Shown here: positions 154 to 14,467 of the stretch, one piece after another | Layout of the letters: every line of letters begins with the position of its first letter | Numbering within the stretch: position 1 is the first letter of the stretch | Origin: an uncultured Thermococci archaeon | Lineage (GTDB): Archaea; Methanobacteriota_B; Thermococci; Thermococcales; Thermococcaceae | Direction of reading: 5' to 3' | Length of the DNA: 14,942 nt | Assembly (NCBI GenBank): GCA_964615185.1 | Contig: CAZTOS010000035.1 | Coordinates: 1 to 14,942, forward strand | Position numbers and translations under genes: made by a program | The notes under the pieces: generated by a model | What the model saw: the letters and a program-made list of their open reading frames with translations, nothing else | Databases searched by the model: none | What the model was told of the DNA's origin: nothing

Positions 154-185
154 AAAGCATTGAGACACTATTTTAGGTGAGCCTA

Positions 186-2015
186 ATGAAAGAAGATTAC
201 CCTAAGCTATTCGAGCCGATAACCATAGGCAACGTTGAGCTCATGAACAGAGTAGTATTTGCGCCGATATCAACGAACTTTGCCCTGGAGAACGGAAGGC
301 TGACGGAGAGATTCGTCAAACACTACGAGAGACGCGCAAGGGGCGGCATAGGCTTGATAATAGTGGAGAACACATCCATAGATTTTCCAGAAGGAAAACA
401 CATGCCTTTCCAGCCAAGAATTGACTCAAAAGCCGTCCTCAAGGACTGGGAATGGCTGACGTTCGAGGTTCACAAGCACGAGGGAGTTAAACTCTCAATA
501 GAGCTCGCCCATGAGGGCTGGAAAAAGATAGGCGTGGACTATCTCTCGCCCGAAAAGATAGAGGAGCTGGTGGAGAAGTTTGCATACTCAGCGAGACTCG
601 CAATGGATGCGGGCTTCGACATGATTGAGATACAAGGTGCCCACGGACTGCTCGTTAACCAGTTTCTCTCCCCCTTAACCAACCACCGCGACGACAAGTG
701 GGGTGAACCGACGAGGTTCGCAGTGGAGGTGAGGAAGCGTATAGCGGAGAAATGCGGCTGGGATTTTCCGGTAACGATAAGGCTGGCCGTAGATGACTTC
801 CTTGAAGGGGGCATAACCCTAAGTACCGGACGGGAAATAGCTCTAACTCTTGCCAAGGCAGGTTACGACATGATACAGGCGGATATAGGCCTCGGGCCAA
901 AGGAGAAGCGTCTCGAGCCGATGCACTATCCCCAGGCCTGGCGTGCTTACCTGGCAGAAAAGATAAGACCTCTACCCGTTCCGGTGGCGGCGGTTGGTAT
1001 GATAAGAGAGCCTGCGGTCGCGGAGAAAGTCCTTGAGACCCAAGCAGACCTCGTTGTCCTCGGAAGGCCCCTGATAGCGGACCCCGATTGGGTAAAGAAG
1101 GTTGTGGAGGGAAAGGAGCATCTGATAAGGCGTTGCATAGGGTGCAGTGAGTGCATCAAGGCAGTCCACGACGAAAAGGGGCCGATAAGATGCGGTGTCA
1201 ATGCCAACGTAGGAAACGAGGAAGAAATCCCAAAGGCCCCGAGAAAACGCGTCGTGGCAATAATTGGAGCGGGGCCGGCGGGTCTTGAGGCCGCAAGGGT
1301 TGCGGCCATGAGGGGGCATGAGGTTCATTTATTCTATGAGGTCTTCGGCGGTCAGCTCACCCTGGCTATGGTTCCACCCGGAAAGGAGAAGATCGGCTGG
1401 CTCATCGAGTACTACCGCAACGTCCTATCCGAGATGCCCAACGTACACTTCCATGAAGGTGAGGCGAGGAAAGAAGATGTACTAAAGCTAAACCCAGAGG
1501 CGGTTGTCATAGCCACGGGGGCAAAGCCGTTCCTGCCCTGCAGCGGGAAACGCGGTTTGATAACGCCCTTCGATAAGATTCTACGTGGAGAGGTCAGGGT
1601 CGAGAACAAAGACGTCCTAATCGGTGGAGGAGGCCTTGTGGGGATTGAAACCGCCCTGTACCTTGCCCAGTTCAACAACAGGATTAAGATAATCAAGCGC
1701 AGTCCGGCAATCCTTCCAAACATTGAGAGGATAACGCGCGGATACCTCCTGCGAGAGCTTGAGGAGAAGGGAATACCCATCCTAACCGGCAGGCGCTTTG
1801 TGAGCGCCGGTGAAGGGTACGCAATAGTGGAGAACACCGAAACAGGTGAGAAGGAAATGATAAAGTGTGATGTAATCGTTGGAGCGTTTGGAATGAGGCC
1901 TTATGTACCGTTCATCATAGAGGACATCGAGTACTACATCATCGGCGACGCGAAATCGGTGAGAAACATAGCCAGCGCAGTAAGGGAAGGCTACGAGGTT
2001 GGAAGAAAGCTCTGA
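186..2015 (+). CDS. NADH:flavin oxidoreductase, Old Yellow Enzyme / 2,4-dienoyl-CoA reductase-like (FMN barrel, 4Fe-4S, FAD/NAD(P) domains)
   Basis: LFEPITIG..LMNRVVFAP start; AGFDMIEIQGAHG..NQFLSP.TN.R.D.WG; GRPLIADPDW; Fe-S motif CIGCSEC...RCGVN; Rossmann motifs IIGAGPAGLEAA and IGGGLVGIE; IGDA near the C-terminus. RBS AGGTGA at 175-180 favours ATG 186 over GTG 177. Confidence 0.93.
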   Translation: MKEDYPKLFEPITIGNVELMNRVVFAPISTNFALENGRLTERFVKHYERRARGGIGLIIVENTSIDFPEGKHMPFQPRIDSKAVLKDWEWLTFEVHKHEGVKLSIELAHEGWKKIGVDYLSPEKIEELVEKFAYSARLAMDAGFDMIEIQGAHGLLVNQFLSPLTNHRDDKWGEPTRFAVEVRKRIAEKCGWDFPVTIRLAVDDFLEGGITLSTGREIALTLAKAGYDMIQADIGLGPKEKRLEPMHYPQAWRAYLAEKIRPLPVPVAAVGMIREPAVAEKVLETQADLVVLGRPLIADPDWVKKVVEGKEHLIRRCIGCSECIKAVHDEKGPIRCGVNANVGNEEEIPKAPRKRVVAIIGAGPAGLEAARVAAMRGHEVHLFYEVFGGQLTLAMVPPGKEKIGWLIEYYRNVLSEMPNVHFHEGEARKEDVLKLNPEAVVIATGAKPFLPCSGKRGLITPFDKILRGEVRVENKDVLIGGGGLVGIETALYLAQFNNRIKIIKRSPAILPNIERITRGYLLRELEEKGIPILTGRRFVSAGEGYAIVENTETGEKEMIKCDVIVGAFGMRPYVPFIIEDIEYYIIGDAKSVRNIASAVREGYEVGRKL

Positions 2016-2202: not shown

Positions 2203-2754
2203 TTAGATCAGGTCATATTTTTTAAACTCAGAGGTAAGCTCCTCAACGGCCCTCTTGATGTCCTCCTCCGTTCTGGCCCCAGAAACTACTACCTTCCCGC
2301 TGTTGAATATAAGGACTGTCATCCTGGAGTTTTTGACCCTGTAGATCACACCAGGAAAGATTTCAGGCTCGTACTCCACGTTTGGGAGAGTTAGTGCAAC
2401 GATGTCAAGGTCGAGCGTCCCAAACCCCAAGTCGCCGGCAGCCACGATGTTCTGAACCTGTATCTCAGGCTCTCCCTTGAACTTCATACCCATAGCTTCA
2501 AGCGTCCGTTTGAGCTTTTCGGTGGCCTTCTTAATCGTTTCAACGCTCTTTGCTCCTGTGCAGACGAGCTTCCCGGAGTAGAATATCAAAAACGTCACAC
2601 CAAGGGACTCCATCTTGTAAACGGCTCCCGGGAACACTGAGGGGTTATAGTGCACGGAGTCCAGTTCACTTGCCACTCTCTCAACATCTATCTCACCGTG
2701 TAAGTCAATGGAAGCCACCACGTTTTCAACCTTAAGGGACATTTCCTCCACCAT
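2203..2754 (-). CDS. tbp: TATA-box-binding protein, divergent paralogue
   Basis: Two TBP repeats: ENVVAS...YNPSVFPGAVY...LIFYSGKLVCTGAKS and QNIVAA...YEPEIFPGVIY...LIFNSGKVVVSGART. All four intercalating Phe are retained. Confidence 0.95.
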   Translation of the reverse strand: MVEEMSLKVENVVASIDLHGEIDVERVASELDSVHYNPSVFPGAVYKMESLGVTFLIFYSGKLVCTGAKSVETIKKATEKLKRTLEAMGMKFKGEPEIQVQNIVAAGDLGFGTLDLDIVALTLPNVEYEPEIFPGVIYRVKNSRMTVLIFNSGKVVVSGARTEEDIKRAVEELTSEFKKYDLI

Positions 2755-2773
2755 ATTAAACTTCGCAATGAAA

Positions 2774-2786
2774 CCTTAACTTTAAC
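2774..2786 (-). promoter_or_regulatory. Possible BRE/TATA for a leaderless tbp transcript
   Basis: Minus-strand TTAAAGTTAAGG lies about 20-30 nt upstream of ATG 2754, and there is no RBS. The match to consensus is weak. Confidence 0.35.
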
Positions 2787-2804
2787 GGAAGCTCACCTGC
2801 TATT

Positions 2805-3301
2805 TTAGTTTACGCTCATGTATGTATTCTGGTTGATGTTGGTTCTGAAGGTCGCCCTAACGCTAAAAAGTCCAAATAATCCCGCAACTACCTGAAACTG
2901 ACACCACGATACTTCCCCAGAAAACTGTGCCCCTTTTCACGAGTGTTAACATGAACCTCGCCACGTGCAAACTCTCTCCCAGAATGATTAACCCGCTCGT
3001 GAGAAATGATAATACTCCCCAATCCCTCCTTCAGAGAATTATAAATGGAGTACTCGTCAGTGAAAACCTTTAGTCCCCCCACAATCAAATTCCCAACCCG
3101 CTGCCTGAACTTCTGAGGAGGTTCTCTGGTGCTTTTATGTGGCATTGACCACTTTACTGCCACAATATAGGGCAGGTTACTCCTCCTGGCCAGCATGTTT
3201 GCCTGATTATTCTGTAGCATCCTTCGGGGCCAGACAGGATTTTAGTGGCGATTCTAGCAGTTAATCTTAATAGATTGTACATCACAGGTGGCGGGAACTA
3301 A
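2805..3301 (-). mobile_element. Decayed, internally deleted IS1595-family element (transposase pseudogene ~3282 to ~2855)
   Basis: From ATG 3282: MYNLLRLTARIATKILSGPEGCYRIIRQTCWPGGVTCP, then a frameshift to YCGSK (Zn-ribbon N-terminus). This joins VFTDEYSIYNSL...HERVNHS..EFARGEVHVNT.E...YRGVSFR*LRDYLDFLAL (ISXO2/IS1595 C-terminal half with an in-frame stop). Imperfect inverted ends TTAGTTTACGCTCATGTATGTA / TTAGTTCCCGCCACCTGTGATGTA. Confidence 0.85.
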
Positions 3302-3348: not shown

Positions 3349-4287
3349 ATGAAAGTAAAAATAGTCTTCGGCATAATACTGGTGGCCCTAGTTCTCATGA
3401 GCCAAAATGTAGCATTGGCCTCCTCTAATGATGAGAAACCTCTAGTAGTTGTGTCTACAACTGTTTTAGAGAGTATAGTCAAGGACTTGGCCGGAGATAA
3501 AGTTGACGTTTTAGTTCTAGTTAGTCCAGCTGTATGTCCAGGACATTATGATGTAAGACCAAGTGATGTTTGGGCAGTAAGTAATGCAAAATTAATTCTT
3601 TACCATGGATTTGAGCCCTGGGTAGAAAAACTGGTTAAGGCTTCAAAGTCTAAAGCTGATGTTGTTAAAGTTCCTGGACCTTGGAACACTCCAGATGCCC
3701 TCAAGGAGAGATACAGGGATGTAGCTAAGATTTTAGAAGAAAAGCTTGGTATTTCAGTTCAAGAAAGACTTAGTGAAAAATTGAATGAAATCAACGAAGT
3801 TTCCAATGAACTTAAAGCTAAGGCAGAGGCCTACAATTTTAATGAGGTAAATGTAATTGTCATGGAATGGCAAAAGTCTTTTGTTGAATGGCTTGGTTTT
3901 AATATTGTTGCTACTTATCCCTCTCCAGAAAAGCTTTCTACCAAGGATATTGTTGAATTGGAGAAAAAAGCAAGGGAAGAAAATGTTCTTTTAGTGATAG
4001 ATAATCTTCAAAGCGGAGTTTCCTTTGGACAAAATTTGGCATCTCGCATTGGAGCAGTTCATGTTACATTGACTAACTTTCCTGGAAATGCCCCTAATGT
4101 CAACACAGTATTGGATGTTATGAAATATAATACAGAAAACCTAATCATTGCAGTAAAAACCGCAAAAGAGATACAAGAAAAGAATGCGCTTAAAGAAAAG
4201 CTTTCAACTTACAAGACTCTCGCAATCGTTGGAATATCCTTAGTGATTATTGAGGCTTTAGTGATAATCTTTATTAGGAGGAGATGA
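3349..4287 (+). CDS. Metal ABC transporter substrate-binding protein (ZnuA/TroA-like), with signal peptide and C-terminal membrane anchor
   Basis: Signal peptide; VVVSTTVLESIVKDLAGDKVDV..LV.P..CPGHYDVRPSD....AKLILYHGFEPW is the cluster A-I N-terminus; hydrophobic C-terminal helix followed by RRR. Confidence 0.88.
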   Translation: MKVKIVFGIILVALVLMSQNVALASSNDEKPLVVVSTTVLESIVKDLAGDKVDVLVLVSPAVCPGHYDVRPSDVWAVSNAKLILYHGFEPWVEKLVKASKSKADVVKVPGPWNTPDALKERYRDVAKILEEKLGISVQERLSEKLNEINEVSNELKAKAEAYNFNEVNVIVMEWQKSFVEWLGFNIVATYPSPEKLSTKDIVELEKKAREENVLLVIDNLQSGVSFGQNLASRIGAVHVTLTNFPGNAPNVNTVLDVMKYNTENLIIAVKTAKEIQEKNALKEKLSTYKTLAIVGISLVIIEALVIIFIRRR

Positions 4288-4691
4288 GAGAGATGCTCTC
4301 TTTGAAAGATGCTGGGACTTTTCATGGGCATCTTGGCCCTTATTTAACAATAGGCTACATGGCTGGAGTATTTGCATCAGAAAAGTTAGAGCAAAAGACT
4401 GAATTTGACCTAGAAGCATGGGTGATGGTGCCAGGAAAAACCCCATACACTTGCATAGTTGATGGAGTTCAGTGCTCCTCTAAGTGTACCCTTGGGAAGG
4501 GGAACATTCATGTAATAGACAGTCCAAAATTCGAAATCAAGTTCAAAAACAAGAAAACAGGTAAAGAGATCAGATTAAGGATAAAAAGAGAAGTTCTTGA
4601 AACAATAGATGAATATGGAGAGGATATGGAGGGAGCAGTGAAGTGGATAAGGTCAAAAGCTTTGCAGGAGATATTCGAGATAGTAGAATAG
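4284..4691 (+). CDS. FmdE/FwdE-family protein
   Basis: FHGHLGPYLTIGY and TCIVDGVQCSSKCTLGKGN motifs. ATGA overlap with the upstream stop; alternative start at ATG 4293. Confidence 0.88.
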   Translation: MREMLSLKDAGTFHGHLGPYLTIGYMAGVFASEKLEQKTEFDLEAWVMVPGKTPYTCIVDGVQCSSKCTLGKGNIHVIDSPKFEIKFKNKKTGKEIRLRIKREVLETIDEYGEDMEGAVKWIRSKALQEIFEIVE

Positions 4692-5359
4692 CCCTCTACA
4701 TGGAAAATGTTTCAACCCTTTATGCAGGAGAGAAAAAGCCCTCCATCTTTAATATTTCTCTAAAAGTCAGATATGGCGATTTTTTGCTCCTAACTGGTCC
4801 GAACGGTGCTGGAAAAACAACGCTAATTGAGACAGCATTGGGATTATTGAAAATCATTTCTGGAAGAGTCCTCTTGTTTGGTTATCATATTCCAGGAGAA
4901 AAGTATAAAGCATTACATTTTGTAAGTTATGTTCCTCAAGACTTCATGAAAAGCCCCTTGGAACCTTACACTGTAAAGGATGTTGTTGCAATGGGCCTTG
5001 CATCGAGAAAGGAGCCTTTTGAGAAATTGAGCAGGGAAGAAAGGAAAAAAGTGAAAGAAGTCCTTGACATTGTCGGAGTAGGTGAGCTTATCAATAAACC
5101 AATAGGGAAACTAAGCGGTGGACAACAACAAAGAGTAATAATTGCGAGGGCTCTGGTAAGAGATCCTTTGCTCTTATTTTTAGATGAACCATTCAGCAGT
5201 TTAGATCCTGAAGGAAGAGAATACATGAGTAAACTCTTTTCTGAAATCAACAAACATGGAACCACAATAGTAATGGTTTCTCACGACAAGAATTACATTC
5301 CTCATAGATGCAACAGGATAGTGGAGATGATGAATGGGAAGATTATGAGGGAGAGTTAG
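4643..5359 (+). CDS. Metal ABC transporter ATP-binding protein (ZnuC-like)
   Basis: Walker A GPNGAGKTT, YVPQ Q-loop, LSGGQQQRV signature, LLFLDEPF Walker B, SHD. Start is GTG 4643 (GGAGG upstream) or ATG 4700. Confidence 0.92.
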   Translation: MDKVKSFAGDIRDSRIALYMENVSTLYAGEKKPSIFNISLKVRYGDFLLLTGPNGAGKTTLIETALGLLKIISGRVLLFGYHIPGEKYKALHFVSYVPQDFMKSPLEPYTVKDVVAMGLASRKEPFEKLSREERKKVKEVLDIVGVGELINKPIGKLSGGQQQRVIIARALVRDPLLLFLDEPFSSLDPEGREYMSKLFSEINKHGTTIVMVSHDKNYIPHRCNRIVEMMNGKIMRES

Positions 5360-6148
5360 ATGTATGGAATTATAATACAAGCGATAATAGGAGGTACAAT
5401 AGCTGGGATTCTCTGCGGTGTCTTGGGAATTCTAATGACAAGATTAAAGCTCAATACTATTGTATTCTCAAGTGCACACTCCGCCTTGGCTGGTGCTGCT
5501 CTCTCCTTAATAATTCCACTTGATCAAATTATTTTAAGTACAGGATTTGTGCTTTTTACAGCCTTAATTTTAGGCCCTCTCAGTGATGCTCTTCTTTTAC
5601 CTCTTGATCAAATTTCAATGGTGCTTCTATCAATATACACGGCACTGGCGTTGATATTTGTATACCTTGCCCCCGGAGGAGTTACTTCCTCTGAAGTTCT
5701 AGCCAAAGTCTTTTGGGGGAGTGTTTTTGCTGTAAATATTCAATATGTTATCCTTCTTTTTGGACTTCTTGCCGTTTTGCTTTTATACCTCTCCTTCTCC
5801 TGGACAAAGTTAAAGGCAATACTCTACGATAGAAGGCTGGCTGAAGCTGAGGGAATAAATACAAAACCCTATGTTTATTCGCTAATCTTACTAACTGGAA
5901 TTACAATAGTTTTTGTTTTAAAAATCGTGGGAGGACTATTAGTTTATGCTATTCTCTTCAATCCAGCAACTGCGGCATCAAAGCTGGCACATAACATAGA
6001 GAAAAGGATAGTACTTTCAGCGCTCTTTGGAGTGCTTTCAGTGCTCTTAGGAATTCTACTAAGTTTATGCTTTAATCTTCCAGTTGGAGCGTGTATAGCA
6101 TTGGCTTCAGCCATAGTTATGTTGATAGCTAGAATATTACCAAGATAA
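5360..6148 (+). CDS. Metal ABC transporter permease (ZnuB/ABC-3 family)
   Basis: Multi-TM protein with SAHSALAGAAL, FWGSVFAV, YDRRLAEAEGIN, KIVGGLLV..L..PATAA and NLPVGACIAL motifs. Confidence 0.92.
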   Translation: MYGIIIQAIIGGTIAGILCGVLGILMTRLKLNTIVFSSAHSALAGAALSLIIPLDQIILSTGFVLFTALILGPLSDALLLPLDQISMVLLSIYTALALIFVYLAPGGVTSSEVLAKVFWGSVFAVNIQYVILLFGLLAVLLLYLSFSWTKLKAILYDRRLAEAEGINTKPYVYSLILLTGITIVFVLKIVGGLLVYAILFNPATAASKLAHNIEKRIVLSALFGVLSVLLGILLSLCFNLPVGACIALASAIVMLIARILPR

Positions 6149-6350
6149 GCTGAAACAGTCCAGAAAAGGCCTTAAATTTCGTACTTTGAAAATCCGTCGG
6201 AGTTCACGTTCTTAGATACCGTTAGGGTTGCAGTATCCCCCAATGCACGCAGACGAGAAACAACAAGAACCGCTATCAGGATCACATTTACATTTTTCTT
6301 TTGAAAGCCTTGGGGCGGGGATGCAGTGATTCTAAAATTGGCATTCAAGC

Positions 6351-6365
6351 AGAAACCCTTTTAAA
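6351..6365 (+). promoter_or_regulatory. BRE/TATA promoter upstream of the structured RNA and the CruF-like gene
   Basis: AGAAACCCTTTTAAA, about 20 nt before the first hairpin. Confidence 0.6.
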
Positions 6366-6383
6366 TTTTGCCGGTGTAATAAG

Positions 6384-6540
6384 GCCTCGAAGAGGCACCG
6401 TCAGAACCCTCAAGGGGGTTTCATGCTATCCTCCGCTCTCGGAGGGTTGACGCTGTAAAGCATCCTTTCAAAACCGCCTTTAAGTGGTTAAAACTCTTGG
6501 AGTGGTCTCTGGGCGGGGTGCATATGAATGAATCAATCAC
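6384..6540 (+). ncRNA. Putative structured non-coding RNA (TnpB omega-RNA/sotRNA-like scaffold)
   Basis: Stems: GCCTC/GAGGC (6384-6396). CGTCA/TGACG (6399-6403 / 6448-6452) encloses AACCCT/GGGGTT (6405-6420) and ATCCTCCG/CGGAGGGT (6428-6447). GCATCCT/GGGGTGC (6460-6466 / 6515-6521) encloses AACCGC/GTGGTT (6472-6489) and ACTC/GAGT (6493-6503). Confidence 0.5.
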
Positions 6541-6563
6541 GCAATGGTAGCCAGGTAGTTGAC

Positions 6564-7289
6564 ATGGCTATCATCACGCCGCTAATAGTAGCGCACGTGG
6601 CGGTGTTCCTGCTGTCCCCCAGTCTTACCACAGAAATCATCTATATGCTTGGCTACGTCGCTTCACTTGCGATAGCGTCGAGATATAGAGAGTATAGGCA
6701 TGTACTCATAATACCCGTTGCTGGCTTCGCCATAGGTTTAGCGTCAGAGGTGGCTGGAGTTAATGCTGGAATCCCCTTCGGTAGGTACGAGTATGTCTCG
6801 CTGGTAACTCCACGAGTCCTTGGTGTACCTCTTTCAGTCCCACTCATGTGGGGCTTCTACGCCTACCTAACGTACCTCATAGCGTCCTCCATCATAACAC
6901 GTAAGGACACTGCGGGGGTCATCCTAAGGGTTACATACGCCTCCCTCCTCATGGTCGCCTTAGACTTGGCAATGGATCCCTTCATGGTCAGCAAAATACA
7001 TGCATGGGTCTGGTTAGGCGGGTGGGGGCCTGCATGGTTCGGTATTCCAGCAAGCAACTTCGTTGGGTGGTTCATAGTGTCGTTCGCAATACTCCTCACC
7101 CATGAGGTTATGGCGAGGAACTCATCAACACCTAAAACAATAGCACTCGCAATCCCCTATGCATGCCTCCTAATGTACTTTGCCTCCTTCATAGGTCCCG
7201 AACTAGCGGCTCCAATAGCCGCACTACTCGTAACCCTGTTAACGGTGCCTGTAATAATAAAAAACCTGGTGACGTTACGCAATGATTGA
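6564..7289 (+). CDS. CruF/DUF422-like membrane protein (carotenoid biosynthesis / 1,2-hydratase family)
   Basis: SEVAGVNAGIPFGRYEY, GVPLSVPLMW, LDLAMDP...AWVW and WFGIPASNFVGWF are the family motifs. ATG 6564 is preferred; ATG 6528 lies inside the IS-derived segment. Confidence 0.85.
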   Translation: MAIITPLIVAHVAVFLLSPSLTTEIIYMLGYVASLAIASRYREYRHVLIIPVAGFAIGLASEVAGVNAGIPFGRYEYVSLVTPRVLGVPLSVPLMWGFYAYLTYLIASSIITRKDTAGVILRVTYASLLMVALDLAMDPFMVSKIHAWVWLGGWGPAWFGIPASNFVGWFIVSFAILLTHEVMARNSSTPKTIALAIPYACLLMYFASFIGPELAAPIAALLVTLLTVPVIIKNLVTLRND

Positions 7290-7592: not shown

Positions 7593-8480
7593 TCATTTCC
7601 CGGTGCAGATGATGTTCTTGCCGCTACACCTGTCCACTTCGAGCTGGACGGTGACGTGGGTTATTCCAAACTTTCTCAGCCTCTTTTCGGCCTCGTCGAT
7701 AATCTTCTGCGCCTCGCTCAGGGGCATATCTTTAACCTCAACGTGGCACTCGAAGTGAACCTCATCCTCTCCAACGCGCCAGGCATGGAAGTGGTGTGCG
7801 TTTTTAACGCCTGAGATTGCTTCGAGCTCTGCCTTTATCGCCCTAAGGTCGAGTTCGGGGGATGCCTCCATGAGCACTTCGATGCTTTCCCTGAGGATTT
7901 CGTACGCCTCGCGGAGGATGTAGAGCGCTATGAGAACCGTGATGAGAGGGTCAATCCAGAGGATGTCCCTTTTTATTATCGCTATTCCACCTGCGACGAC
8001 GGCCACAGAGGAGAGGGTATCACTCAACAGATGCAGATATGCAGAGCGGACGTTGAGGCCGTGTGCGTGACTGTGCAGGAGAAGGACTGAGAGAAGGTTG
8101 GCGAAGAGGCCGATTAAAGCCACGCCCAGCATAAGCGGGCCGTCTATTGGTTCGGGGTTCTTATAGCGCCTGTAGGCTTCGACGAGAAGGAGCAACGAAA
8201 CTCCCACGAGAACTGCTGAGTTGATGAATGCCACGAGGATTTCGGCCCTCTTGTAGCCGAAGGTGTACTTTTCGTTGGCCTTTCGCTCGCCGATTTTTAT
8301 GGCGAAGTAGCTCGCGAGCAGGCCCATGCTGTCGCCCAAGTTGTGGATTGAGTCGCTGAGAAGGGCTAGACTGCCAGAGAGAAGCCCGCCCACTATCTCG
8401 GCGAGAGCTATACCCATGTTGAGGGCGAAGGAAAGGAGCATCCTTCCCTTAACTTCGCCAGTGTGATGCTGGTGGCCCAT
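7593..8480 (-). CDS. czcD: Cation diffusion facilitator (CzcD/ZitB-like Zn/Co/Cd efflux)
   Basis: SGSLALLSDSIHNLGD, YTFGYKRAEIL, NVRSAYLHLLSD, AHHFHAW and GITHVTVQLE. His-rich N-terminus MGHQHH. RBS GGAGGT before ATG 8480. Confidence 0.92.
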   Translation of the reverse strand: MGHQHHTGEVKGRMLLSFALNMGIALAEIVGGLLSGSLALLSDSIHNLGDSMGLLASYFAIKIGERKANEKYTFGYKRAEILVAFINSAVLVGVSLLLLVEAYRRYKNPEPIDGPLMLGVALIGLFANLLSVLLLHSHAHGLNVRSAYLHLLSDTLSSVAVVAGGIAIIKRDILWIDPLITVLIALYILREAYEILRESIEVLMEASPELDLRAIKAELEAISGVKNAHHFHAWRVGEDEVHFECHVEVKDMPLSEAQKIIDEAEKRLRKFGITHVTVQLEVDRCSGKNIICTGK

Positions 8481-8512
8481 TTTTAACCTCCGTGGGGTTT
8501 CTTTATCCGGCA

Positions 8513-8527
8513 TATAAAAGGCTTTCG
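8513..8527 (-). promoter_or_regulatory. BRE/TATA promoter of the CDF gene
   Basis: Minus-strand CGAAAGCCTTTTATA, about 33 nt upstream of ATG 8480. Confidence 0.6.
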
Positions 8528-8717: not shown

Positions 8718-9458
8718 TCATGTGAACCTCCTCTCCAGAACTTTTCTGTGGATTGCACTGCCCGTGAGGAAGAATGCAGAGCCAAACAGGGCCAGCATTA
8801 AAAGGTCAAGCCACACGGGAAGGTAGCCCTTCCCAAGTGAATGCCTCAGGGCGTCAACATAGTAGGTGAGCGGAGAGATGAAGGAAATCCACCTGCCGTA
8901 GGCTGGCAGGTTTTCGATGGGGACGAAGATGCCGCTGATGAAGAGGAGCGAGAACTTAACGACTGATGACAGCATCATTACATCAGCCGGAACATCAGTA
9001 GGAGGATAAGAGGACATGAGGACTGTCATTGCGGAGAAGCATCCGATCGCTAAGAGGGTGGAGAGGACGAAGAGCCAGATGGAAGGGTGGATTGAGAGGT
9101 AGAGTATTGCGGGAACGGCTATGGTGAATGTTATCGCCAACCCGAAGTATAGGGAAGCCTGAAAGTCGCCGAGGAGTACCGTTGTTAGTGAAACTGGAGC
9201 AGTTATGAGTCTCTCGAATGTCCTTCCCCTGCACTCCCATGGGATTATCGTGGGGCCAACGGCCGTTGATGTGAAGAAGGCGGTCATGGCCGTTAGACTA
9301 ACGAGGAGATGACCACCCGAGAGGTTGCGTCCTATCATGAAAGCTAAGAATAGGAAGAAGGGGAAGAGGAGGCCCATTATCACGACGGGCCCCTTGAGGT
9401 AGAAGATGCGCATGTCCTTCTTCGCTATGGCAAATGAGCGCTTTAAGGTCTCAATCAT
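8718..9458 (-). CDS. ABC-2 type exporter permease
   Basis: About 6 TM segments; WEC.GRTFERLITAPVS; FISGIFVPIENLP...ISFISPLTYYVDALR. RBS GGTGAG before ATG 9458, overlapping the ATPase stop. Confidence 0.9.
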   Translation of the reverse strand: MIETLKRSFAIAKKDMRIFYLKGPVVIMGLLFPFFLFLAFMIGRNLSGGHLLVSLTAMTAFFTSTAVGPTIIPWECRGRTFERLITAPVSLTTVLLGDFQASLYFGLAITFTIAVPAILYLSIHPSIWLFVLSTLLAIGCFSAMTVLMSSYPPTDVPADVMMLSSVVKFSLLFISGIFVPIENLPAYGRWISFISPLTYYVDALRHSLGKGYLPVWLDLLMLALFGSAFFLTGSAIHRKVLERRFT

Positions 9459-10377
9459 TTTCCTCACCTACCAGAGCCAGAAATACGTCCTCCAGTGAGG
9501 GGGAGAGAGTTCTCAGGCTCACTATCCTCAGCCCCTTCCTTTCGGCGTAGTGAACAAGCTCCTTAACCGTTGCATCGGGGTCGTTCGTAAAAACCCTCGC
9601 CTTATCCCCCATCAGCTCGACCTTCGTCGCGGAGGCTATCTCCGAGGGCTCAAGCTTCATCGGCTCAAAGCTGACCTCCACGGAAACACTTCCCCTGACC
9701 AGTTGCTTGAGCTTCTCGGGCGTGTCAATCGCTATGAGCCGCCCTTTCCTTATGATTCCAATCCTCTCGCACAGCTCGTTTGCGTCAACCATGTTGTGGG
9801 TCGTCATGAATATAGTCTTCCCCTTCCTCTTCTCCTCGCGGATTACGTCCTTTATCAGGCGTGCGCTTATGACGTCGAGCCCGCTCGTCGGTTCATCAAG
9901 GATTAAAAGCTCGGGGTCGCTTATCATGGCCATTGCGAGGATGAGACGTTGCCTCATACCTTTGGAAAAGGCCCTTACCTTCACGTTCCTCTTCTCATAG
10001 AGGCCAAACAGCTTGAGGAGTTCAATTGAGCGCTTCTCTATCTCCCTCTTTTCCATCCCGTAGAGCTCGCCCATGAGCTTGAGGTTCTGCATCGCCGTTA
10101 AATCCACGTAAGGGTTTGCCATCTCTGGAACTATGCCCATCCTTTCCCTCGCCTTTATCTTTTCCCTCTCGTCGAGCATGTCATAGCCGAGAACCCTTAT
10201 CTCTCCGGAGCTTGGCCTCAAAACGCCGGTAATAGTTCTGACGGTGGTTGTTTTTCCTGCCCCATTCGGGCCGAGGAAACCAAAAATCTCACCCTTTTCA
10301 ACTTCAAAGCTCACGTTATCAACGGCGAGAAAGGAACCGTAGTACTTGGTAAGCTCAACGACTTCTATGGCATTCAC
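9451..10377 (-). CDS. ABC exporter ATP-binding protein (DrrA/NodI-like)
   Basis: GFLGPNGAGKTT, FSKGMRQRL, LILDEPTSGLD, TTHNM and C-terminal PSLEDVFL. GTG start with GGAGGT RBS. Confidence 0.93.
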   Translation of the reverse strand: MNAIEVVELTKYYGSFLAVDNVSFEVEKGEIFGFLGPNGAGKTTTVRTITGVLRPSSGEIRVLGYDMLDEREKIKARERMGIVPEMANPYVDLTAMQNLKLMGELYGMEKREIEKRSIELLKLFGLYEKRNVKVRAFSKGMRQRLILAMAMISDPELLILDEPTSGLDVISARLIKDVIREEKRKGKTIFMTTHNMVDANELCERIGIIRKGRLIAIDTPEKLKQLVRGSVSVEVSFEPMKLEPSEIASATKVELMGDKARVFTNDPDATVKELVHYAERKGLRIVSLRTLSPSLEDVFLALVGEEND

Positions 10378-10491: not shown

Positions 10492-11520
10492 TCAGGAAGC
10501 TCCAGGAACAGCTTCCTCCTCTAAAACCCTGCACTTCCACAGACCTGCTATCTTCCTCCAAGCCTTGACGTAGCTAATCAGGAACGGTATCTGGAGGATT
10601 GGGGCCACCGCGGGCGCTATGGCCATGAGTCCCGTTCCTGCGGCAAGGGCTATGGCCATCGCCGTCCCCTCGTTCTTTCCAACGGAGGTAAACGTTATTG
10701 CCATGTGATCTCTGTAGGGAATTCCAACAGCTTTGTCCACGAGGGTCATGAAGAGCAGGGCGGTTGTGTAGTAGATGACCAGAGGAATCAGGGCGATGCC
10801 GGCGATGCTTGGTTTGCTGGCTATGAGCCTTGCCTTCTCCATGAATATCAGGAAGACTATGGTGTACATGCCCATGAGCGAGACTGCCGGGAAGGCAGCT
10901 TTTATCCTCAGGAAGCCCTCTGGGCCGAGTTTTCTCATGAGGTAAGACCTCGTGAGAATGCCAAGTATCATGGGCGTTATGACGACTATTAGGATTGTCT
11001 TGACGAGGAGCCAGGCCGAGATTGAGACGTGATAGCTCGATGCGAAGAGCTTGAGCCATGCCGGAACCGTCACGATTGCCAGCGTGAAGCTTAATGCAAC
11101 TACTATGGTCGCCAGCTCGATGTTGCCCTTGGTGAAGCCGGTGTAGGCTATGCTCATCGAGGAGCATGGCACGACAACGGCTAAGAGAAGCCCGAGGGCG
11201 AGCGTGTGGTTTATGGGGTGGATAAGGCTGGTCAGCCATATTGCCCCGTACATTATGAGCGGGGAAATAACAAGTCCCATTGTGAGGGCTATGGCCAGCT
11301 GCTTTCCGAGCTTGGCACTGTTCTTGAGCTCTCCAAGGCGGAGGTTAATCATCATTGGGTATATCATGCTAATGACAACGAGCATGTTTAGAGTTTTGAG
11401 CGTGTCATGGTAGGGCTTGAGGTTCGTGTGCGTTCCGACGTAAAAGCCCGTTATCATGGCGAGCGTGACGTAAACGGGAAGGTACTTATCGAGGTGGTTC
11501 TTGAGCTTCAGCCAGTTCAT
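10492..11520 (-). CDS. Acr3/BASS-family transporter (arsenite-efflux-like, TM4 Cys retained)
   Basis: About 10 TM segments; MIYPMM, GLLLAVVVPCSSMS.AYT.FTKGN, P.ILG...R and KNEGTAMAIA. Confidence 0.85.
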   Translation of the reverse strand: MNWLKLKNHLDKYLPVYVTLAMITGFYVGTHTNLKPYHDTLKTLNMLVVISMIYPMMINLRLGELKNSAKLGKQLAIALTMGLVISPLIMYGAIWLTSLIHPINHTLALGLLLAVVVPCSSMSIAYTGFTKGNIELATIVVALSFTLAIVTVPAWLKLFASSYHVSISAWLLVKTILIVVITPMILGILTRSYLMRKLGPEGFLRIKAAFPAVSLMGMYTIVFLIFMEKARLIASKPSIAGIALIPLVIYYTTALLFMTLVDKAVGIPYRDHMAITFTSVGKNEGTAMAIALAAGTGLMAIAPAVAPILQIPFLISYVKAWRKIAGLWKCRVLEEEAVPGAS

Positions 11521-12005
11521 TCTTCATCACCCCCGCACTCGGGGTGCGTTTTTATCACAAGAACGGGCTTCTTCGTTTTTCTCAGCACGCGGATGGTCGT
11601 GGAGCCAAGAAGCTCATGCGAAAAGCCGAGCTTTCCGTGGCTGGGCAAGAGTATGAGCGACACGTCCTCCTCATCGGCGACCTTAACAATCTCCTCCCAT
11701 GGGAGGCCGAACCTAACCATAGGTTTCACGTTTTCAGTGCCAAAGATTTTCTTGCATTCCTCCACCTTAGCCTGAAGCTTTTCCATGGTTTTCTTAAGCA
11801 GTTCCTCTTTGATGGCCTCGATTTCCAGCTCCTCATCGTTATAGAGGAGTGAGTAGCCGTTGAGGAGGTCCTCAAGGGTTCCCTCGTCTATCACGTGAAG
11901 GAGAACCACCTCTCCAACTGGCACGTTGTTAGCCTTCTCGAAGCGCTTTGCCGCCCTGTACGCTCCCTCGCTAAAATCCGTTGGAAAAAGTATTTTCCTA
12001 AACAT
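11517..12005 (-). CDS. Universal stress protein (UspA family)
   Basis: MFRKILFPTDFS, VVLLHVID and G.PWEEIVKVA...LILLPSHGK.......LGSTT.RVLR.TKKPVLVIK. RBS AGGTGA before ATG 12005; ATGA coupling to the Acr3 gene. Confidence 0.95.
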   Translation of the reverse strand: MFRKILFPTDFSEGAYRAAKRFEKANNVPVGEVVLLHVIDEGTLEDLLNGYSLLYNDEELEIEAIKEELLKKTMEKLQAKVEECKKIFGTENVKPMVRFGLPWEEIVKVADEEDVSLILLPSHGKLGFSHELLGSTTIRVLRKTKKPVLVIKTHPECGGDEE

Positions 12006-12048
12006 CAATTTCACCTGTTATATTTTTCATTTCAAATATTTTTCATAT

Positions 12049-12079
12049 ATTAGGTTACCCTAATTGCTTTTAAGGTTTG
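12049..12079 (-). promoter_or_regulatory. Promoter of the usp-acr3 operon with a DtxR/MntR-like operator
   Basis: Minus-strand AAACCTTAAAA TATA at about 12068-12078. Near-palindrome ATTAGGTTACCCTAAT at 12049-12064 lies just downstream of it. Confidence 0.65.
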
Positions 12080-12260
12080 CTGGTCAGAGGTGGGTATTAG
12101 AAGGTATACACTGGTCATTCCCAAAGGTTTGCCCGGCCACATTATAGGTTCACCAATAAAAAGATAGCCTCAGGGTGTTGGGGGAAAGCTTTATGGATTT
12201 CGCTGTAAAGGTTTAAAAAAGCAAAAACCCGATGACCTAAAATGGATAATAACCCCCCGC

Positions 12261-12632
12261 TCAGACCTCCTTAAGAGCCTCTTCAATTCTTTCTATCAGA
12301 TGTGTTGCTGCTAAGCCAATGTCGTCCACGACCTCAACAGAAGAAGTCTCATAGCAGGGGGTTCTCATGTTAAGTTCCTCTTCAAGGTTGATGTACTTAT
12401 CATAGCGGATTCCCAGCTCGTCGGCAGTTTTCTTTGCACACTTCAGAGAGCAGGAATCCAAGAGTATAACGTATTTGGCGTTTTTTATTCTTTCAACTAC
12501 CTCCGGAACCCCTCTTGTAATTGCCATGAGCGGGCACAGCACAACATTATCCCCGAGCTTCTTTAGGGCTTCCAGTGCAATCAGCTCGGAAAGGGACTCC
12601 CCGCACGTTACGAGACAAACCAGTGGGGGCAC
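12261..12632 (-). CDS. DGC-domain-like putative zinc-binding protein
   Basis: Cys pattern CLVTCG...VLCPL...ILLDSCSLKCAKK (DGC motif variant). The start codon is uncertain (see findings). Confidence 0.78.
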   Translation of the reverse strand: MPPLVCLVTCGESLSELIALEALKKLGDNVVLCPLMAITRGVPEVVERIKNAKYVILLDSCSLKCAKKTADELGIRYDKYINLEEELNMRTPCYETSSVEVVDDIGLAATHLIERIEEALKEV

Positions 12633-13649
12633 TCATCTCTCATCACCTATGGGGATATTGGTTTCAACGTATATACGCCTTGCCCTCAGAATGGCGAAGA
12701 GCCTTACGAAGAGTATCATGAGTATCATGTCGCTGAAAGGTCCTCCCAAAGCTGTCCCAACTGCCGCGAGGGGACCAAACGTCCCTATTGCCATTGCCGT
12801 TGCAAGTGTCATGTTGGAGCCAGTTGAATACACGAGTGATATGTTATGCTCCAGAGGAAAGCCAAGCGCTTTTCCAGTGAAGTAAGCTATGGCCGCACGT
12901 GTTAGGAAGTAGGCATTCATCATGAGCGCTCCTGCAATTATAATCTCCGGTCTCTCGGCTATCATCTTCCCGTTTATGCCGAAGACCACGGTTATCATCC
13001 AGTACATGCCGAGGAGTGAGAGGCCCACAAGGGGCTCCTTGAGCTTCATGAGGGTCTCTTCGCCTTTCCACCTCAGAACCGCGTACTTCGTCAGCTGGCC
13101 CGCCACGAGGGGCACTATGATATAGAGGACGAGCGACTTGAGGAGTAGCCACGTGGGGACTTTTATGAGCGTGTGGAGGAGCAACTTAGCGTAGACGGGC
13201 ATGACGAAGAGCGAGAGGATGAATGTCCACACGACGCCCACAAGTGTCAGCTGGAACCTTCCGCCCGCGAGGTTCGTGAATGCTGGAGCCGAGCTGGGGA
13301 GGGGGGCGAGGCTTATCAGCACAACCCCGGCGAGCAGTCTCGGGTCAGTGTTCGGCATTACCGCAAGCCAGAACTTGATGAGGAGCCACGTTAAAGCTGG
13401 GAAGAGAATGACATAGAACGCTGTCACGGCCACGAGATACTTCGTCTTTATCTCAGTTCTCGTCGTGAACGCCTTTCTTATGTCCATGAACACCATTGGC
13501 TGGAAGAGCATCATAAAGAGCGCAATCGGTAGCGTCCATTTAAGAGATAGGAACATATCCCTGTGATGAATGCCAGCATAACTCGATAAGAGGATGAGCG
13601 TGAAGACGATGTAGGTCATCTTCTCCTTCAGGAACTTTACAATCTTCAT
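12633..13649 (-). CDS. Second, divergent Acr3/BASS-family transporter (no cysteine)
   Basis: LFMMLFQPM, AGVVLISLAPLPSSAPAFTNLAGG, IIVPLVAGQLT and GSNMTLATAMAI. RBS GGAGGTG before ATG 13649. Confidence 0.82.
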   Translation of the reverse strand: MKIVKFLKEKMTYIVFTLILLSSYAGIHHRDMFLSLKWTLPIALFMMLFQPMVFMDIRKAFTTRTEIKTKYLVAVTAFYVILFPALTWLLIKFWLAVMPNTDPRLLAGVVLISLAPLPSSAPAFTNLAGGRFQLTLVGVVWTFILSLFVMPVYAKLLLHTLIKVPTWLLLKSLVLYIIVPLVAGQLTKYAVLRWKGEETLMKLKEPLVGLSLLGMYWMITVVFGINGKMIAERPEIIIAGALMMNAYFLTRAAIAYFTGKALGFPLEHNISLVYSTGSNMTLATAMAIGTFGPLAAVGTALGGPFSDMILMILFVRLFAILRARRIYVETNIPIGDER

Positions 13650-13688
13650 CCTAACCACCTCCTAATTCATCGTTTGGAAAAATAAAGC

Positions 13689-14003
13689 TCAGGCGAGCCA
13701 GAGAAAGCCCACCACCCTTCCGTCCTTCACGAGCTGGACTTTCGTTCCCCATTTTCCGTGCCAGTAGGCACCAACTTCGAGTTCTCTTGGCTCAACATTC
13801 TCCCAGAGCTCTCCGATTATCTTCCCGTCAATGACCAAGGGGATGTGAATGGTTCCACACCGACCCCTCCATACGGCGCCCTTTGTGGCTTTCTCAAGCA
13901 GTGCCTTCGCTTTTGCCCTAATCTCCTCGTAGCTTGGCTCTTTCTCCATCACGTAGCCAAACCTTCCAACCTTCCACTTCCATCCGGGAACACCAAACGG
14001 CAT
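13689..14003 (-). CDS. Hypothetical protein with an internal Trp/Gly-rich duplication
   Basis: Strong RBS GGAGGTGG before ATG 14003. First gene of the minus-strand operon. Two copies of GA.W.G..GT....LV.DG...G.LW. Confidence 0.8.
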   Translation of the reverse strand: MPFGVPGWKWKVGRFGYVMEKEPSYEEIRAKAKALLEKATKGAVWRGRCGTIHIPLVIDGKIIGELWENVEPRELEVGAYWHGKWGTKVQLVKDGRVVGFLWLA

Positions 14004-14029
14004 CTCAACCACCTCCATCTTTTCTGTTT

Positions 14030-14110
14030 TATAATATTACAAAAGTATTTATAAAGTTTTCTATAATATTCGAGCTAAGCTCACACAAAAACGGTAATTT
14101 TATAAAGTTT
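14030..14110. promoter_or_regulatory. Divergent promoter region between the operon and the regulator
   Basis: Two TTTATAAA boxes (14048-14055, 14099-14106). TATAATATT is repeated at 14030-14038 and 14062-14070. Palindrome GAGCT-A-AGCTC at 14072-14082. Confidence 0.65.
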
Positions 14111-14137
14111 GCCAGTTAACAATTAACGGTGATAGAA

Positions 14138-14467
14138 ATGCCAAAGTGGATGATGGGCGATATGGCCAATTTGAAGAGCCTGATGATGATGCTCAAACCC
14201 CTGATGGCCGAGCCAAGGCGGAGCATCATAAAAATCCTGAGCGAGGGCGTCAAGGGGACGAACGAGATCTACCGGGCACTATGGGAGAGAGGTCTCAACA
14301 TGCCCCGTTCAACCCTTTACTACCACCTCTCGGCCCTTGAGGACATGGGGATAATCGAGATGGTGGGCTATCGAGAAGAAGGTGGGGGAGCACCTGAGAA
14401 GCTCTGGAAGCTCAGGGTCAGGAAGGTTGGGATAGACCTCGTCACTGGAGAGATATTCAAGGAATAA
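14138..14467 (+). CDS. ArsR-like winged-helix transcriptional regulator
   Basis: L.AEPRRSIIKIL...GTNEIY..L......PRSTLYYHLSALEDMGIIE...GGGAPEKLWKL. RBS GGTGA before ATG 14138. Confidence 0.88.
   Translation: MPKWMMGDMANLKSLMMMLKPLMAEPRRSIIKILSEGVKGTNEIYRALWERGLNMPRSTLYYHLSALEDMGIIEMVGYREEGGGAPEKLWKLRVRKVGIDLVTGEIFKE

Follow-up and report, generated by a model that had tools for sequence, protein, structure and literature searches.

An accessory TATA-binding protein clade of Thermococcaceae, probably old and passed between genera with its predicted promoter

The window, by which we mean the whole stretch of 14,942 nucleotides analysed here, encodes an accessory TATA-binding protein (TBP), termed TbpA. 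The gene represents an old, conserved second TBP of Thermococcaceae, likely passed from one genus to another in metal/redox stress islands as a compact unit of promoter and gene. Tentatively, and with slightly less than even confidence, we regard it as a working low-dose auxiliary TBP reading the same class of boxes with a different grip. We take the clade to be a genuine variation on the known theme of multiple archaeal TBPs, annotated earlier yet uncharacterised. The features referred to below are as follows.

177..2015, plus strand: OYE-like flavin oxidoreductase, GC3 0.62
2203..2742, minus strand: accessory TBP gene tbpA (subclade A1), 179 aa, within the longest open reading frame, to 2754; assigned by Pfam, alignment, tree and model
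2745..2752, minus strand: Shine-Dalgarno-like GGTGGAGG 5′ of ATG 2742; its GGTG core precedes the start in the relatives compared
2773..2787, minus strand: predicted promoter CGTTAAAGTTAAGGT; conserved, function assigned from position
2912-3097, minus strand: IS1595-family transposase fragment (relic), bystander; E about 3e-4, below the Pfam cut-off
3349..6148, plus strand: ZnuA / FmdE / ABC ATPase / ABC-3 permease block, low GC; separate insert
7593..8513, minus strand: CDF cation-efflux gene
8718..10377, minus strand: ABC-2 ATPase and permease
10492..14467, no strand assigned: two Acr3-like (SBF) transporters, Usp, DGC protein and ArsR-type regulator; high-GC3 island genes, the Acr3 match being under the model's cut-off

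Identity of the accessory TBP

The open reading frame at 2203-2754 (minus strand) encodes an intact two-repeat TBP (PF00352, E 2e-55). Its AlphaFold model (mean pLDDT 94.4) has the saddle fold, with a TM score of 0.93 to P. woesei TBP (1ais). All four DNA-kinking phenylalanines (F37, F54, F129 and F146 in the 179-residue numbering) are present; they correspond to alignment positions 43, 60, 134 and 151, invariant in 15/15 subclade A1 and 33/33 canonical rows. Pfam, model and alignment bear out the first-pass annotation, which had described an intact TBP with these four residues. The translation, which contains YEPEIF, also confirmed the YNPSVF motif and the KKYDLI end given there. Translation more likely starts at ATG 2742, giving 179 residues, because the Shine-Dalgarno-like GGTGGAGG lies just 5′ of it and most close relatives start there.

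Two other details of that description had to be revised. YEPEIF had been called retained, but the canonical copies read YEPEQF in 33/33 rows, so that Q133I is a fixed difference, with E130 and E132 kept. The missing acidic tail, also pointed out there, is not a trait of the clade: G114, G117, G108, G125 and G101 have a tail, and with the tail present in several clade members its loss was ruled out as the key change in tbpA. The window protein scores below every NCBIfam TBP cut-off, lies outside the canonical clade and has neither YNPEEF nor YEPEQF. The pI of accessory TBPs ranges from 4.7 to 6.0, as against 4.8-5.1 in canonical ones; overall, their charge is not clearly less acidic.

Three TBPs were found in the host genome (G000; 95.6% complete, 1.6% contamination): a canonical copy on contig C103, the window copy on C35, and another accessory copy on C50, which are 49% (C103) and 61% (C50) identical to the window copy. 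With a canonical tbp present on another contig, the window copy is not the sole TBP of the genome, which would have refuted the first-pass reading, but an extra, non-housekeeping one, and at 49% identity it is, as had been claimed, clearly diverged from the housekeeping protein. The third TBP (G000:C50:3101-3658, minus strand; L002) belongs to subclade A2 and has a host-like GC3 of 0.33, the same AAAGTTAAGGT box and an S159A replacement in the second repeat. Two high-GC3 radical SAM genes follow it; such genes also lie near the A1 copies in G101, G117 and G125.

Distribution and phylogeny

Accessory TBPs (matches of at least 62% identity) occur in 17 of 99 Thermococcales genomes and in 11 of the 80 high-quality ones, whereas 75/99 have a single canonical TBP only. 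A1 is present in 15 genomes, A2 in G000 and G004 and as a contig-end fragment in G019. Five single-contig genomes carry both an accessory and a canonical TBP. Named members, found in the closest-homologue clusters, are T. gammatolerans (Tg0829), T. guaymasensis, T. sp. 4557 and T. sp. AM4. Among the matches listed in database searches there was an identity gap below 60%, and none of them placed the accessory clade outside Thermococcaceae. A viral origin of tbpA was rejected, the best matches in 11 viral loci being 30-40% identical. So was a plasmid origin: identity was below 60% in all 87 plasmid records with TBP matches, of which the listed ones were haloarchaeal and 41-45% identical to the window TBP.

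In a careful tree of 49 of the 89 TBP rows, from which long branches and near-duplicates were left out, A1 and A2 form one clade (100/98), the canonical copies another (99/98), and the two clades are sisters (99/94). A quick tree of all 89 rows agrees. Given the outgroup sampling used, this topology points to a duplication that predates the radiation of the canonical Thermococcaceae TBPs.

Further extra TBPs, separate from this clade, were seen in Thermococcales. G007:C1:1645790-1646296 (L099) and G028:C1:1446870-1447361 (L101) encode a very divergent one (about 35% identical, pI 7.8), in which E130 is changed to D or N. It directly adjoins an EVE-domain gene and is possibly tied to defence against modified DNA. 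Another extra TBP (G035:C40:4602-5159, L097; G038:C37, L098; G004:C16, L094) derives independently from the canonical clade; these duplicates show a parallel Q133I change, and two have a nine-residue insert before the first stirrup. G004 also contains two C-terminal pieces of TBP, both located where contigs end.

Selection and probable transfer between genera

Within A1 the median dN/dS was 0.087 (range 0.03-0.18; 33 usable of 105 pairs), compared with 0.040 for canonical TBP genes (138 usable of 528 pairs), as calculated by the Nei-Gojobori method with pairs of dS outside 0.05-1.5 dropped. tbpA is under purifying selection, and neutral evolution, a possibility raised in the first-pass annotation, is refuted.

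Between the window and four genomes of another genus (G085, G086, G094, G120) the accessory genes are 88-89% identical (dS 0.46-0.57), whereas the canonical TBP genes in the same comparison are 74-78% identical, with saturated dS. Because the accessory genes are closer than the saturated canonical ones, transfer between genera is suggested, and a recent event would be the simplest reading; no donor is named. Island genes match at 83-93% between the window and other-genus genomes. The codon bias of tbpA is foreign to the host: its GC3 of 0.62-0.63 exceeds that of 99% of 773 host genes, and most island neighbours are similar.

The DNA-binding surface

By lists of DNA-contact and base-reading positions that we took, as an assumption, from TBP structures, the window TBP equals the canonical protein at 16/16 base-reading positions. 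It differs at 7 of 31 DNA-facing positions (E41S, E42V, I47V, R49K, A56T, Q133I and V147T), all outside the base-reading core. The stirrup changes fixed among accessory TBPs are E41S, E42V/I and Q133I. E41 is replaced in 17/17 accessory rows and present in 33/33 canonical rows. At position 42, Q or V occurs in 24/28 outgroup rows, which argues that E42 is a trait of the canonical lineage and not an accessory loss. Q133I recurs in the independent canonical duplicate (G035, G038, G004) and in 9/28 outgroup rows, a set chosen in part for this motif. The N-terminal lobe, which we take to cover the downstream half of the box, is more diverged (40/88 residues identical to canonical) than the other lobe (50/89).

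E41 and E42 presumably govern salt-dependent DNA binding, roles that we take from mutagenesis of P. woesei TBP. Glutamate mutants of this protein lose halophilic binding according to the excerpted text of PMC3310334, in which residue numbers are not given. E130 and E132, identified as the C-lobe glutamates that bind TFB in an excerpt of PMC7221094, are kept in 15/15 A1 and 2/2 A2 rows and equal the canonical residues. C33 and C48 are missing from the accessory TBP; the idea of a cysteine-poor, metal-proof TBP was weakened by their absence from all 28 outgroup rows and by the lack of cadmium regulation of tg0829. Taken from sequence, TbpA would likely be an auxiliary TBP with remodelled stirrups and altered affinity.

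A conserved, off-consensus predicted promoter element

The predicted promoter CGTTAAAGTTAAGGT consists of a BRE-like GTTAAA (2786-2781) and an off-consensus TATA-like GTTAAGGT (2780-2773), and starts 44 nt 5′ of the ATG. CGTTAARKTTAAGGT precedes 15/15 A1 genes at promoter distance, once per carrier genome, while the flanking genes change; A2 genes have AA[GT]TTAAGGT at the same distance. The element was also present in 11/11 metagenome loci (at least 62% identity, upstream sequence present), several of which duplicate genome contigs; a twelfth locus was without upstream sequence. Its position, -44, falls within the main BRE-TATA peak of the genome (292 of 441 sites at -49 to -44) and is compatible with the T. 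kodakarensis start-site distances in the excerpted part of PMC4247193. The gene immediately upstream of tbpA varies, and upstream similarity within the subclade stops just 5′ of the element, as would be expected of a self-contained promoter-gene unit. The canonical tbp promoter, used as a control, is highly conserved too but has a consensus box. Promoter conservation is thus ordinary; what is unusual is that an off-consensus predicted box is conserved.

In most canonical tbp leaders shown (e.g. G000:C103:4643-4758), the conserved AT boxes TTTAAAAA, TTTATAAA and TTTTTAAA follow one another, possibly as tandem or divergent promoters or a sign of autoregulation. A group of YEPEIF-type TBPs (L075-L079, L082, L083, L200-L202, L206, L209), the titled ones from Thermoplasmatales, Thermoplasmata and Hadarchaeota assemblies, is preceded by AAACV-TTTAT and then G/C-rich bases; these boxes are TATA-like, with what would be an off-consensus 3′ end.

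The odd box raises the possibility, which we consider unlikely, that TbpA works like a sigma factor: it would read KTTAAGGT-type boxes that canonical TBP reads poorly, and so activate its own gene along with a few targets reserved to it. Of 924 promoter-like regions in the host genome, two have AA[GT]TTAAGGT at promoter position, and both belong to accessory tbp genes that are only 61% alike; TTAAGG occurs 11 times in this set. Ranked against 400 strong promoters, the TATA part of the tbpA box scores under the first percentile, though by a matrix that had the canonical consensus as its seed. That the more diverged lobe is the N-terminal one, assigned above to the downstream half of the box, would fit such a factor, whereas the 16 unchanged base-reading residues speak against it.

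Searches for further target genes also argue against a sigma-like role. The exact 15-mer matched in 22/99 genomes, 15 times at tbpA and 7 times elsewhere (reversed control, 20 matches); the five inspected of the seven other matches all lie within open reading frames, and each A1 carrier has the 15-mer once, at tbpA only. Sites of the looser TTAAGG-SD-start type were not enriched in carriers: at genes other than tbpA there were 14 in the 17 carriers and 84 in the 82 non-carriers (0.82 and 1.02 per genome). The pattern was designed such that the promoters of tbpA fall outside it. Motif searches of the 99 genomes found no distinct motif in a target-gene set enriched in carriers. The best-scoring island promoters (OYE, ZnuA, ABC-2, ArsR) have ordinary TATA boxes, and the excerpted text of a review reports that a distinct consensus for archaeal paralogues has not yet been demonstrated (PMC5501381). 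The proposal that the protein serves island stress or metal promoters is thus unsupported: the best-scoring island boxes are canonical, carriers have no extra TTAAGG promoters, cadmium regulation was not found for the T. gammatolerans copy and the base-reading residues are unchanged.

A narrower version, which we rate as distinctly unlikely, is a transferable TBP-plus-promoter pair, in which TbpA would prefer the GG-containing KTTAAGGT and activate its own gene, forming a self-sustaining island-borne switch that passes between hyperthermophile genera. Such a pair, if real, would show that stirrup changes can give an archaeal TBP paralogue another TATA preference, with no part played by the base-reading residues.

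The island and its neighbouring genes

The gene had been described as carried in an accessory island, and this is upheld: the island is an acquired metal/redox one with foreign GC3. Across the 17 accessory loci, several of which are cut by contig ends, the commonest neighbours are an ABC-2 permease (10 loci, directly upstream of tbp in 6) and a CDF exporter (7 loci, directly upstream in 3). Acr3-like transporter, OsmC and SLAC1-type genes occur in 5/17 loci each, OYE, ArsR and radical SAM genes in 4/17 each.

The IS1595 relic reported beside tbpA is real but a weak match (E about 3e-4), and the only such match in the host genome. Among the loci compared, DNA matching the relic stretch adjoins tbpA only in the window and in G121. 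IS1595 was rejected as the vehicle of tbpA, the relic stretch being common to this one other locus only.

Several further observations were made in the window. The metal-uptake block at 3349-6148 lies as a low-GC insert (GC3 0.29-0.40, three genes measured) inside the high-GC island; it is shared with G121 only, at 95% identity, and its ZnuA-like protein has a hydrophobic stretch at the C terminus. A non-coding, MITE-like repeat of about 230 bp (6288-6520) recurs on 12 other contigs and is deeply covered in runs X1 and X2; a second repeat family occurs at C35:20635-20813. A CruF-like (carotenoid hydratase family) membrane protein, under NCBIfam cut-offs, is encoded at 6528-7289.

Expression and interaction partners

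The first-pass annotation had allowed that the gene might be unexpressed; a close relative, Tg0829, has been detected as protein. The excerpted T. gammatolerans proteome lists it in 4 peptide rows with three sequences and counts 7 spectra, where the canonical Tg0446 has 96 (PMC2718504); the detected peptides carry motifs of the accessory clade. RNA runs X19 and X20, from one sample and possibly DNA, gave partial contigs of the gene from a relative of the host and do not count as evidence of expression. In the excerpts of PMC3407056, tg0829 is absent from the 116-row table of cadmium-regulated genes of T. gammatolerans, the adjoining czcD is unaffected by cadmium, and induction is seen for tg0841, an ArsR gene close by.

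Low abundance would also suit a functionally equivalent spare, a low-dose TBP with a weak promoter that provides extra capacity or backup and is carried along by useful island genes. Such a spare would be compatible with the conserved core and TFB surface and with the patchy presence in 17/99 genomes; since the canonical tbp promoter is strongly conserved too, promoter conservation alone is not special. We nevertheless find a spare improbable, because two subclades separated by long branches have the same stirrup changes and the same odd box, and because an exact off-consensus sequence kept past synonymous saturation is unexpected of a mere spare.

The presence of two TFB genes and one TIP26-family gene in the host genome (the latter family is found in 94/99 Thermococcales genomes), together with the position of Q133I next to the TFB-binding glutamates, could suggest a decoy or antagonist. 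TbpA would then soak up the inhibitor TIP26 or shift use between the two TFBs, altering canonical TBP activity indirectly. This is very unlikely: the whole DNA-reading surface is conserved, which a pure decoy does not need, and at an abundance so low relative to canonical TBP titration would be weak.

Assignment of the contig to the host

Among the 138 host contigs C35 is the richest in GC, and its part outside the window shows no core synteny with the genus, so that the presence of three TBPs in one cell rests on binning. The far end of C35 overlaps by 55/55 bases with C44, a core contig whose long matches to genus relatives are 77-95% identical, and two repeat families on C35 are common to many host contigs; overlap and repeats support correct binning, short of proof. 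That tbpA is an artefact, a decaying pseudogene or the product of a mis-binned contig, is barely credible given these links, the zero differences over 2038-2830 in a run from a second study, the low dN/dS and the five single-contig genomes with both copies, and for the clade it is largely refuted.

Discussion

The auxiliary reading, which we prefer, is weakened by the 75/99 genomes that manage with one TBP, by a charge that is not clearly less acidic, by the outgroup residues at position 42, which make E42 a canonical-lineage trait, and by the lack of cadmium regulation in T. gammatolerans. TbpA is likely made at a low level, as shown for the protein of a relative. On ordinary TATA boxes we would predict the usual TBP-TFB-TATA complexes, but with a different grip; the loss of acidic residues in the first stirrup may make DNA binding tighter or less salt-dependent. 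The protein would then help weak promoters to fire, foremost the one with the GTTAAGGT box of its own gene, and expression would thus be tuned under some stress or low-energy state, by analogy with Methanosarcina TBP2/TBP3. TbpA likely acts as such a low-level helper in tuning transcription rather than by switching to a separate gene set.

Compared with canonical Thermococcales TBP (P. woesei, PDB 1PCZ/1AIS/1D3U), the accessory proteins, a sister clade, have the same fold (TM 0.93-0.94), the four Phe, the base-reading residues and E130/E132. They differ in being only about 50% identical, in E41S, E42V/I, Q133I and V147T, in lacking C33/C48, and in their patchy and mobile occurrence, off-consensus predicted promoter and low abundance.

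Multiple TBPs are known in haloarchaea and Methanosarcina (excerpts of PMC5501381, PMC3960522 and PMC7289017). TBP2 and TBP3 of M. acetivorans are dispensable beside the main TBP and tune about 123 genes, according to the excerpted text of PMC3960522. The arrangement of an accessory TBP beside one main TBP is alike, but the Thermococcus clade sits in stress islands, bears signs of passage between genera and has a fixed promoter element; the likeness does not imply orthology, as the trees took in no M. acetivorans TBP. Haloarchaeal genomes, with TbpA-F, likewise have multiple TBPs, and specific TBP-TFB pairs are described in the excerpted review (PMC5501381); unlike in these expansions, the host genome has two TFBs and carriers usually have a single extra TBP. 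According to Table 3 of PMC3597702, both T. gammatolerans and T. barophilus have two TBPs, Tg0829 being the second annotated one of the former. Tg0829 of T. gammatolerans belongs to the same clade as the window TBP and is annotated just as 'TBP'. In the full-text literature, a coverage that leaves out most subscription journals, we found no paper on the origin, transfer, promoter or function of the clade.

For archaeal TBP paralogues, no distinct promoter consensus had been established according to the excerpted review (PMC5501381). A natural second TBP in cultured strains and one conserved candidate promoter make the division of work among archaeal TBPs testable with two proteins and two promoters. 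Thermococcales offer clean in vitro transcription and genetics. The accessory clade indicates that a basal transcription factor can pass between genera on stress islands.
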